This document shows, piece after piece, positions 11,542 through 13,111 of a stretch of DNA of 28,708 nt. Within the stretch, counting starts at the first letter, position 1; each line of letters starts with the position of its first letter. Source of the DNA: Candidatus Woesearchaeota archaeon (lineage in GTDB: Archaea > Nanobdellota > Nanobdellia > Pacearchaeales > GW2011-AR1). The notes under the pieces were generated by a model that saw nothing but the letters and a program-made list of their open reading frames with translations, made no database searches and was not told where the DNA came from. Both the position numbers and the translations under genes were made by a program. The DNA lies in contig CAZKAU010000001.1 in NCBI GenBank assembly GCA_964551065.1, positions 1-28,708 on the forward strand, in the 5' to 3' direction.

Positions 11542-12099
11542 ATGGTTTTGTGGTTATGGTTTGCAATTGGTGTTGTTTTGTTGATTGCAGTTATTTTCTT
11601 TTCATATTTCAATAGATTTGCAATTTTAGGTAATAGGATTGATAATTCTCTTGGGCAAATTAATGTTCAGTTGAAGAGGAGATCTGATTTGATTCCAAAC
11701 CTTATGGAAACTGTTAAGGGTTATGCGAAGCACGAAAGAAAAATTATGAAAGAAGTTACCGATGCGCATAAAGCAATGGTTTCTGCAAAAGACCTTACAG
11801 GAAAAGTTAAGGCTAGTGATGTTCTTCAGAATTCTCTTGGGAGACTTTTTGCAATTGCGGAGAATTATCCGAAGCTTCAGGCAAATGAAAACTTTATGGA
11901 ACTTCAAAAAGAACTTTCAACAACCGAAGATAGAATTGCCTATGCAAGACAGTTTTACAATGATTCTATTCTTTCGTACAATAATCTTTGCAAGACATTT
12001 CCAGGAGTAATGTTTGCTGGAATTTATGGAAAGAAACCTAAGGAATTTTTGCAAATTGCTGAAGCGGAAAAGAAAGTTGTCAAGGTTAAGTTTGATTAA
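11542..12099 (+). CDS. lemA: LemA family protein
   Basis: N-terminal TM helix, I.VQLKRRSDLIPNL.ETVKGYA.HE, AENYPKL.ANENF.ELQ.EL.TTEDRIA.ARQFYN and FPG. Confidence 0.96.
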   Translation: MVLWLWFAIGVVLLIAVIFFSYFNRFAILGNRIDNSLGQINVQLKRRSDLIPNLMETVKGYAKHERKIMKEVTDAHKAMVSAKDLTGKVKASDVLQNSLGRLFAIAENYPKLQANENFMELQKELSTTEDRIAYARQFYNDSILSYNNLCKTFPGVMFAGIYGKKPKEFLQIAEAEKKVVKVKFD

Positions 12100-12130
12100 T
12101 ACTACTTTTCAATCCTGACATATCAAAACG

Positions 12131-12138
12131 TTTATAAA
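12131..12138 (+). promoter_or_regulatory. TATA box of the rpl7ae-rps28e-rpl24e operon (leadered transcript, predicted start near 12160)
   Basis: TTTATAAA preceded by BRE-like CAAAACG, 75 nt upstream of the L7Ae ATG. Confidence 0.65.
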
Positions 12139-12159
12139 GTAACTTTTTCAATGTAATTT

Positions 12160-12182
12160 ATCCAATGACTAAACTTGAGGAT
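12160..12182 (+). promoter_or_regulatory. K-loop/K-turn in the rpl7ae 5' UTR (putative L7Ae autoregulatory site)
   Basis: ATCC-AAT-GA-CTAAACTT-GA-GGAT: 4-bp C-stem, 3-nt bulge ending in U, and tandem sheared G.A pairs. Confidence 0.75.
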
Positions 12183-12213
12183 GCTATTCTAGTTATCCTC
12201 CCTAAAAACAAAA

Positions 12214-12507
12214 ATGGACGCATATGAACTTATTGAAAATGTAAGAAAGGAAGGAAAAATTGAAAAGGGAACTAACGAAGTTACCAAGGCTATCGAGAGA
12301 GGCACTGCTAAGCTTGTCGTTTACGCTTCAAACGTTGAACCTAAAGAAGTAATTCAGCACATTCCACTACTTTGTAAGGAGAAAGGAATTCCCTGCAAAG
12401 AAGTTGACGATAAAAAAAAGCTGGGCATTTCCGCAGGTTTGCCTGTTTCTGCTTCATCAATAGCAGTAATTGACGCAGGTAAAGTTAATCTTTCTCAACT
12501 AAAATAA
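12214..12507 (+). CDS. rpl7ae: 50S ribosomal protein L7Ae
   Basis: GKIEKGTNEVTKAIERGTAKLVVYASNVEPKEVIQHIPLLCKEKGIP...KKLG signature. Confidence 0.97.
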   Translation: MDAYELIENVRKEGKIEKGTNEVTKAIERGTAKLVVYASNVEPKEVIQHIPLLCKEKGIPCKEVDDKKKLGISAGLPVSASSIAVIDAGKVNLSQLK

Positions 12508-12555: not shown

Positions 12556-12912
12556 ATGGCAAAAGCAAAAAAAGCTCAAAAACAGCAAAAAGGTCAGAAG
12601 AAAGGTAAGCAGCAGAAGTCTGCGCAACAAACTCAACAGCAACAGCAGCAGAAACAGTCTGGAACAAAAGGTAGCGAGAAGATTGTTGGAGAGGCAGTTC
12701 CTGCAATAGTTGAAGAGATTGTTGGGAGAACTGGTTTTAGAGGTGAGATTACACAGGTTAGATGCAAGGTTGAAGCAGGAAGAGATCTTGGACGTTCAAT
12801 GAGAAGAAATGTTAAAGGACCGGTAAGGCCTGGAGACAGATTGATGCTTAGAGAAACTGAAATTGAGGCTAGAAGAATCAAATCTAAAGTTACGAAGGGG
12901 GCTTATAGTTAA
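12556..12912 (+). CDS. rps28e: 30S ribosomal protein S28e with a Gln/Lys-rich N-terminal extension
   Basis: [51 protein letters not shown] at 12556 is preferred over the TTG track start. Confidence 0.95.
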
Positions 12913-12913
12913 A

Positions 12914-13111
12914 ATGACATTAGATGAAGGAATAATAAAACAGATTGACAGCGCTTTGACTGAAAATCCTTCAGGCGTTGTAGAAGTTGGAAATGGTCAA
13001 ATGGCTTTTGAAGTTAAGTTATATCTTGAGTCCAGAGGAGTTCCTTCAACATTAATGGAGGATCAAAACAGATATCATATTCTTTATGAGAGGGGGAATC
13101 AAAATGCCTAA
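12914..13111 (+). CDS. 65-aa hypothetical protein, possibly a TusA/SirA-like fold without the CPxP motif
   Basis: ATG 1 nt after the rps28e stop; its stop overlaps the rpl24e start. Sequence MTLDEGIIKQIDSALTENPSGVVEVGNGQMAFEVKLYLESRGVPSTLMEDQNRYHILYERGNQNA. Confidence 0.65.
   Translation: MTLDEGIIKQIDSALTENPSGVVEVGNGQMAFEVKLYLESRGVPSTLMEDQNRYHILYERGNQNA

Follow-up and report, generated by a model that had tools for sequence, protein, structure and literature searches.

A putative L7Ae-binding kink-turn and a competing hairpin share a strand in the predicted l7ae leader of a Candidatus Woesearchaeota genome

In a Candidatus Woesearchaeota genome, the predicted mRNA of the ribosomal protein gene L7Ae opens with a kink-turn hairpin, one strand of which is also an arm of a second, stronger hairpin. 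Judging from the comparison of related leaders, both folds look selected, and they cannot coexist. We consider it fairly probable that the kink-turn is an L7Ae feedback site and that the stronger competing hairpin sets the threshold of the response. The region was analysed within a stretch of 28,708 nucleotides (assembly GCA_964551065.1, contig CAZKAU010000001.1, positions 1 to 28,708 of the forward strand), hereafter called the window; all features described below lie on this strand. To our knowledge, few archaeal cis-regulatory RNAs are known, and none has been characterised in the unculturable DPANN lineages.

The gene itself (12214..12507; 97 aa) is L7Ae, as the initial annotation had it: its product matches Pfam PF01248 (1.4e-25) and solved L7Ae structures (best 1.5e-27, PDB 2fc3), and it retains the KGTNExTKAxERG RNA-binding helix. 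There is a single copy in the whole genome (616 kb, 84% complete). Upstream of the leader, a LemA gene ends at 12099; on the 3' side, L7Ae is followed by S28e, a 65-codon open reading frame and then L24e. The L7Ae-S28e-L24e operon proposed initially is thus right in its gene order and incomplete in its composition, as the 65-codon frame sits between S28e and L24e. This frame (12914-13111) overlaps the start of L24e and has no Pfam match. As for S28e, its Pfam domain covers residues 46-108 of 118 and is preceded by some 45 residues, many of them Lys and Gln, that extend the N terminus (12556-12690).

A TATA box, TTTATAAA, was recognised for this operon at 12131..12138 from its sequence and from a spacing rule drawn from the genome itself. 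Indeed, 62 leaderless genes have a TATA 8-mer whose first base lies 29 nt upstream of the A of their ATG; the distance is 30 nt in 10 genes and 28 nt in two. Applied to TTTATAAA, the −29 rule places the predicted transcription start at 12131 + 29 = 12160, an A that follows a T and opens the C helix of the kink-turn; this is the start that had been proposed. The distance is kept across relatives: of 61 leaders, 57 have a 21-nt spacer from the TATA 8-mer to the C stem, and the other four have one of 22 nt. Moreover, C-helix pairing in 71 leaders exceeds that of shuffled sequences for the third pair, does so weakly for the fourth and falls to chance at the next two positions outward of 12160, so that the C helix seems to end at the predicted transcript start. 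The sharpness of this promoter geometry (62 genes at −29) suggests that most genes of the genome are leaderless; genome-wide, motifs resembling the Shine-Dalgarno (SD) sequence show only an approximately 3-4-fold enrichment at −16..−6 (GGAGG approx. 4-fold).

The bases of the kink-turn all lie where they had been placed initially, and the orientation of the sheared pairs is also correct. The 5' strand of the C helix, AUCC (12160..12163), pairs with GGAU (12179-82) and is followed by the three-nucleotide bulge AAU (L1-L3; 12164..12166). G1b and A2b (12167..12168) then face A12178 and G12177, respectively, in the tandem sheared pairs G12167.A12178 and A12168.G12177. On the NC side, an 8-nt terminal loop, CUAAACUU (12169..12176), closes the structure, with C:U at 3b:3n and not a single Watson-Crick pair. 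Together, G2n, A1n and the 3' strand of the C helix read GAGGAU (12177..12182), an SD-like sequence that is common to both folds. The strict motif ATCC-N3-GA-N(3-12)-GAGGAT is found once in the window, against 0.04 occurrences expected from shuffles, and no other TATA-preceded copy exists in the 616-kb genome.

The label of ‘K-loop’ given to this element in the initial annotation had to be abandoned. A K-loop is a kink-turn in which a terminal loop replaces the C helix and the NC helix is kept (PMC3884654), whereas here the C helix AUCC/GGAU is present and covarying, and it is the NC side that the 8-nt loop caps. By its sequence, the element is a kink-turn hairpin with a 4-bp C helix and a minimal NC helix. 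Published folding rules state that C:G at −1b:−1n and C at 3b promote kink-turn folding (PMC6298567); the kink-turn of the window has both and should therefore fold readily once its stem has formed. A box C/D sRNA was also considered and rejected, as the element spans 23 nt without a guide, Rfam is empty and the genome lacks fibrillarin. Indeed, no Rfam family matched, whether the whole window was searched at the gathering threshold or positions 12120-12260 at E-values up to 10.

Leaders were collected from 59 order-level relatives, from 60 more genomes across the class and from 80 named MAG contigs; the relatives with names are Candidatus Pacearchaeota, Woesearchaeota or Nanoarchaeota MAGs. 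Three contigs with an archaeal L7Ae leader (L129, L153 and L161) are publicly labelled ‘bacterium’ or ‘Bacillota bacterium’, probably in error. Kink-turn leaders were chosen with the regular expression CC-N3-GA...GA-GG. It matched 38 of the 59 leaders from order-level relatives and 71 over all sources, with a fixed spacing from the TATA box; G1b and A2b are identical among aligned relatives and are also required by this selection. Over the 71 leaders, the bulge is AAU in 29, GAU in 21, UAU in eight and CAU in four, that is NAU in 62. The third C-helix pair from the bulge covaries (U-A in 28 leaders, A-U in 17, G-C in two) and is formed in 48 of the 71, where shuffles gave 31 on average and 45 at most. 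Likewise, RNAalifold applied to 16 leaders gives the C stem as consensus. These data indicate that a kink-turn is conserved, at the level of sequence, at the predicted start of the L7Ae-leader transcript throughout the class. Three short L7Ae leaders (L034, L042 and L063) have no recognisable kink-turn, and the element thus appears to have been lost more than once.

The NC side seems free to vary: from none in the window, the number of Watson-Crick pairs goes up to five, with unrelated sequences in distant relatives, and close relatives display C-G and U-A pairs at this place (CUAAAUCAG). L7Ae is a protein that inserts a helix into the major groove of the NC helix. With an NC helix devoid of Watson-Crick pairs, the predicted strength of L7Ae binding in the window is consequently uncertain.

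The strand GAGGAU (12177-82) is, as had been noticed at the outset, the exact reverse complement of AUCCUC (12195..12200), which we refer to as the competitor or ‘anti-kink-turn’ strand. The hairpin formed by the two is the MFE structure predicted by RNAfold, with pair probabilities of 0.94-1.0. Its six pairs amount to −5.7 kcal/mol and an inner CUA/UAG stem within the competitor loop (12184..12192), also part of the MFE structure, brings a further 3.6 kcal/mol approximately, for a total of −9.3; the C-stem hairpin is given −1.6 kcal/mol by nearest-neighbour energies that grant its G.A pairs no credit. Just 3' of the kink-turn, UUCU (12187..12190), an element conserved across the class, can pair with AGGA (12178-81). 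A secondary pairing between UGACUA (12166-71) and UAGUUA (12190-95), in the ancestral register of the long hairpins, is minor (−1.4 kcal/mol). The leader then ends in an A-rich spacer without an SD sequence (12203..12213). Taken on its own, the window leader has a z-score of −2.2, with 6 of 200 shuffles folding equally well.

Two types of leaders were distinguished among the relatives. In type I (SD-fused) leaders, the 3' strand of the kink-turn, GGAGG, is itself the SD sequence and lies 4-11 nt upstream of the ATG; in type II (spaced) leaders, to which that of the window belongs, the ATG follows the kink-turn at a distance of 17-102 nt (median 33). Type II comprises 96 distinct leaders, of which 91 have a parsable core and were used for complement counts. 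RNAalifold run on MAFFT alignments recovers the C stem only, or a 5-bp core within the genus, as the competitor arm cannot be aligned by position. Shuffle, swap and complement-count tests were hence used, all of which treat the leaders without correction for phylogeny. In the window's family, the MFE structures of all 27 type II leaders pair 5-22 kink-turn nucleotides with downstream sequence, and dinucleotide shuffling of the 3' part gives z-scores that are all negative (mean −2.95), compared with a mean of −0.68 for 11 SD-fused control leaders. When 3' arms were swapped among 48 leaders, cognate combinations averaged −12.96 kcal/mol versus −9.98 for non-cognate ones, and none of 20,000 permutations reached the cognate mean.

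The complement counts tell which nucleotides are targeted. An ungapped 6-nt complement (G.U allowed) to the 5'-strand GA plus the four variable nucleotides x3-x6 is found in 44 of the 91 leaders, for instance GAACGA/UCGUUC, GAACAC/GUGUUC or GAACUCU/AGAGUUC, against 9.4% of the non-cognate pairs differing at two or more variable positions and 5.9 of 91 in shuffles. A full complement to GAGGNN exists in 45 of 91 (shuffle mean 20.7), and 70 of 91 fully complement one kink-turn core strand or the other. UUCU is found 1-14 nt 3' of the kink-turn in 41 of 48 spaced leaders (shuffle mean 9.2, maximum 20) and in 51 of 58 leaders of a second set. The seven exceptions all come from the window's genus and have UCCUC or CUCCU instead; in the genus as a whole, relatives carry UCCUC, AUCCUC or CUCCU, in shifted registers.

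According to these results, the competitor pairing is under selection, as far as comparative sequence tests can tell, and it covaries with the kink-turn strands (swap and complement tests), the pattern that had been called for in related leaders. The support comes from other genera: within the genus subclade of the window, a short hairpin core is conserved with zero compensatory change and cognate arms perform no better than non-cognate ones, so that genus-internal tests do not discriminate. The claim that the two folds exclude each other is also sustained, since GAGGAU takes part in both and each fold is conserved and covarying in relatives, as expected of a two-state RNA with mutually exclusive helices. 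The AUCCUC hairpin reported initially is present, though it is not the whole element: it appears to be the genus-level, entirely Watson-Crick version of a wider arrangement that combines UUCU with complements to either strand of the kink-turn.

Translational autoregulation by L7Ae through a kink-turn in the l7ae 5' UTR was described in Sulfolobus acidocaldarius by Daume et al. 2017 (PMC5539422), and an l7ae 5' UTR kink-turn in Archaeoglobus fulgidus by Huang, Ashraf and Lilley 2019 (PMC6298567). According to the published model, the leader is unstructured without L7Ae, and its folding hides the SD sequence (PMC5539422, PMC6298567). The leader studied here shares with these systems the gene, the location in the 5' leader, the short C helix, the NAU bulge (GAU in all six published leaders; PMC6298567), the tandem G.A/A.G pairs and a terminal loop on the NC side, which three of the six also have. 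It has a standard kink-turn sequence (C helix, three-nucleotide bulge, tandem pairs), and its motif (12160-82) belongs to the transcribed l7ae leader if transcription begins at 12160 as predicted. We therefore class it, on its sequence, as a variant of the known L7Ae autoregulatory leader that fails the published mechanism on two counts, SD occlusion and, by prediction, the lack of structure in the free RNA.

The first failure concerns the ribosome-binding site. Transcription is predicted to begin at the kink-turn, whose end is separated from the ATG (12214) by 31 nt without any SD sequence, and the same is common elsewhere: an SD-like 4-mer at −17..−5 is missing from 74 of the 96 spaced leaders. 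As the kink-turn no longer overlaps the ribosome-binding site, SD occlusion cannot be the mechanism here. In contrast, the SD-fused relatives of the window's order, in which the 3' strand of the kink-turn is the SD sequence, have exactly the published arrangement. The second failure concerns the free state, for which a conserved competing hairpin (−5.7 to −9.3 kcal/mol) is predicted instead of an unstructured leader. A further difference lies in the C:G at −1b:−1n and the C at 3b, classed as fold-promoting, which set this kink-turn apart from those of the six published leaders. A kink-turn that is predicted to fold well, unlike the published ones, could explain why a mesophile would have an active competitor. 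The searchable literature contains no description of a hairpin that competes with the kink-turn in l7ae leaders, and the r-leader survey of Eckert and Weinberg lists no L7Ae motif.

The initial annotation had gone further and suggested a switch controlling the operon. The competing folds on which this suggestion was built are well supported, but the link to expression is not: the leader has no SD sequence, a 31-nt gap precedes the start codon and the fit of the freed arm to its surroundings is not significant. The freed arm shows no excess complementarity over shuffled arms either to the start region (z = 0.03) or to the early coding region (z = −0.24), and the predicted accessibility of positions −15..+6 goes from 0.66 in the free RNA to 0.60 with the kink-turn held bound. 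No terminator-like site was found in a search of the leader for an intrinsic terminator or attenuator, and T-runs in the 3' arms of relatives are inconsistent by eye. Most long-hairpin relatives have their 5' end paired in both states, which makes a change in 5'-end accessibility unlikely as a signal. In some MFE folds the 5' AUCC pairs with AUGGAY at the start codon; we judged this pairing to be incidental, since Met-Asp represents the ancestral protein start for type I and type II alike, and leaders of proteins that begin with Met-Ala lack the pairing.

Our preferred reading of the leader would run as follows. The L7Ae-S28e-ORF65-L24e mRNA would start at A12160 and open with the kink-turn hairpin, the putative L7Ae-binding site, whose GAGGAU strand would double as an arm of the stronger hairpin with AUCCUC; UUCU (12187-90) would offer this strand a second, weaker partner. 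As long as L7Ae is absent, the RNA would reside in the competitor hairpin, and the kink-turn would be disrupted. L7Ae would thus have to pay about 4-8 kcal/mol to capture the kink-turn, and its apparent affinity would drop accordingly, by three to five orders of magnitude. Another possibility is that L7Ae binds the kink-turn as it emerges, during the roughly 15 nt of transcription that precede the competitor strand. Whether the hairpin exacts this cost or leaves this short interval, a response would be expected only above a threshold of free L7Ae. We infer that L7Ae binds the kink-turn and that binding represses expression as a negative feedback. In some relatives the hairpins reach −15 to −20 kcal/mol, and the whole fold of the longest leader −31.7; hairpins that stable might never open for L7Ae at equilibrium, so kinetic control has to be assumed.

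How repression would be exerted may differ among lineages. In the SD-less lineage of the window, it could come from the L7Ae-RNA complex at the 5' end itself or from the freed pyrimidine arm; more generally, a block by the 5' ribonucleoprotein or exposure of the pyrimidine arm to decay or termination factors are possible routes for the SD-less majority. In lineages that retain a real SD sequence downstream of the competitor, this SD may become paired to UUCU/CCUC once the arm is freed. Indeed, capture of the kink-turn is predicted to reduce SD accessibility sharply in five of 13 SD-bearing type II leaders from other families (0.81 to 0.06, 0.85 to 0.23, 0.51 to 0.21, 0.64 to 0.25 and 0.73 to 0.49), and a crude shuffle test of SD hiding over the SD-bearing leaders is not significant (mean z −0.4). 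We put forward, as a tentative extension that is less probable than the feedback site itself, that these leaders form an undescribed class-wide family of protein-sensing RNAs in DPANN archaea of the Pacearchaeota/Woesearchaeota type. Its members would combine a 5'-terminal kink-turn with an anti-kink-turn arm built on a UUCU core and would impose a co-transcriptional threshold on L7Ae, the SD-less majority being controlled otherwise than by SD occlusion.

Other explanations of the two folds were weighed against the threshold reading. The L7Ae site might work while the downstream complement only hides the SD-like GAGGA from ribosomes or, when L7Ae is lacking, protects the 5' end of a long and unusual leader, exclusion of the kink-turn being a side effect. 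GAGGA is after all the sole G-rich stretch in an AT-rich leader, which any stable hairpin would tend to use; stray SD sequences could be harmful in a genome that does use SD-like motifs (GGAGG approx. 4-fold at −16..−6); and the absence of an output platform, together with a 5' end that is base-paired in either state in most long-hairpin relatives, would be in keeping with hiding or protection. We nevertheless regard this explanation as unlikely, since the complement in 44 of 91 leaders targets and covaries with the 5' strand (GA and NC nucleotides), which is not SD-like, and since a protective hairpin could form anywhere, yet 70 of 91 leaders fully complement a kink-turn core strand. That the whole resemblance is due to chance, with neither fold being functional, is contradicted by the comparative data and hardly credible. 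Short motifs do arise in AT-rich DNA, and the z-score of the window leader is modest, but conservation at a fixed distance from the promoter in well over 100 genomes, covariation of both folds and the 0.04 motif occurrences expected per window are difficult to reconcile with coincidence.

The two remaining explanations bear on the output. In one, a relay, L7Ae capture would free the UUCU/AUCCUCC arm, which is anti-SD-like, to block a purine-rich site at or after the start codon, and translation would proceed when the arm is tied up without L7Ae. The drop in SD accessibility in five of 13 SD-bearing leaders of other families is what this model would predict, UUCU is able to pair with any RGRR, such as GGAG of the SD, and the constrained fold of the window pairs CCUC.CCU with AGG.AAGG in codons 11-14. 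Such a relay seems nonetheless slightly less likely than hiding or protection: an SD is absent from the window and from 74 of 96 spaced leaders, complementarity of the arm to the start and coding regions is no better than in shuffles, the SD-bearing leaders fall short in the crude shuffle test, and the purine tract (+28..+42) is dictated by the encoded protein and falls outside an initiation footprint. In the other, the AUG formed by the last two bases of the bulge and G1b (12165-67), 5 nt from the 5' end, would open an upstream ORF of 20 codons (12165..12227) that overlaps the L7Ae start out of frame and ends 11 nt past its ATG; L7Ae would hide this AUG and so stop coupled re-initiation at L7Ae. 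Besides the overlap in the window, the dominance of leaderless mRNAs in the genome and the occurrence of the AUG in nearly all leaders speak for it. The kink-turn consensus (NAU bulge + G) fully explains this AUG, however, which is also buried in the competitor stem of long-hairpin relatives. Over 38 relatives, the upstream ORF has 2-40 codons, with a stop at −43 to +62 and no conserved frame; in one genus member it ends after 3 codons, and in L008 and L041 it reads on into L7Ae in frame, without meeting a stop codon. We accordingly judged the upstream ORF to be incidental and control through it improbable.

The reading of the hairpin as a threshold for L7Ae recalls the two-state platforms of riboswitches and attenuators, in which a strand is likewise common to a ligand-stabilised fold and to a stronger helix transcribed later; the energetics suggest a kinetic control in this case. 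The ligand would differ in being a protein, and no terminator and no SD- or start-sequestering helix was identified in the lineage. A closer relative by its protein is yeast L30e, which is described, in the summary given in PMC6298567, as autoregulated through a kink-turn in its own transcript: here too, a ribosomal protein of the L7Ae family binds a kink-turn close to the 5' end of the mRNA that encodes it, but the output in yeast is splicing and translation control, and a competing hairpin is not part of the model as summarised there. In the synthetic OFF switches of Saito et al. (PMC3105309), an L7Ae-kink-turn complex near the 5' end of mammalian mRNAs acts from the 5' UTR independently of any SD, as the SD-less leaders would need to; these switches are engineered and rely on cap-based scanning, and a 5' roadblock in these archaea is hypothetical.

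On the predicted folds, the leader departs from both points that support the published feedback model; about a hundred genomes have nevertheless kept the kink-turn and its competitor. Should the binding threshold be set by the competitor, the leader would amount to a naturally occurring RNA that responds to a protein through riboswitch-like two-state logic. The SD-less cases also raise the question of how a 5' RNA-protein complex might control translation among mostly leaderless mRNAs, and a class-wide family, if real, would provide a handle on the initiation and regulation of leadered archaeal mRNAs that lack an SD. With a length of just about 45 nt and a well-behaved protein partner, the element should lend itself easily to bench testing. 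L7Ae/kink-turn pairs are already in use in synthetic biology, and a built-in threshold element could be useful for such devices.

This lineage also differs from the published l7ae systems in being mostly devoid of fibrillarin (PF01269). The gene is absent from the genome studied here and from a 98%-complete member of the genus, and only one of 41 family genomes has a clear copy. The L7Ae feedback leader would therefore persist without the box C/D methylation machinery, and its retention in a family mostly lacking fibrillarin argues against tying the origin of the feedback loop to box C/D ribonucleoproteins.

Finally, seven leaders from other families (L076, L080, L082, L085, L092, L096 and L104) apparently stack two kink-turns in one hairpin. 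In L082, which reads UACC-AAU-GA-UU-AAU-GA-GGCC...GGCU-GA-AU-GA-GGUA, the same two pairs make up both the NC helix of the outer kink-turn and the C helix of the inner kink-turn. This arrangement suggests two neighbouring L7Ae sites in these leaders.
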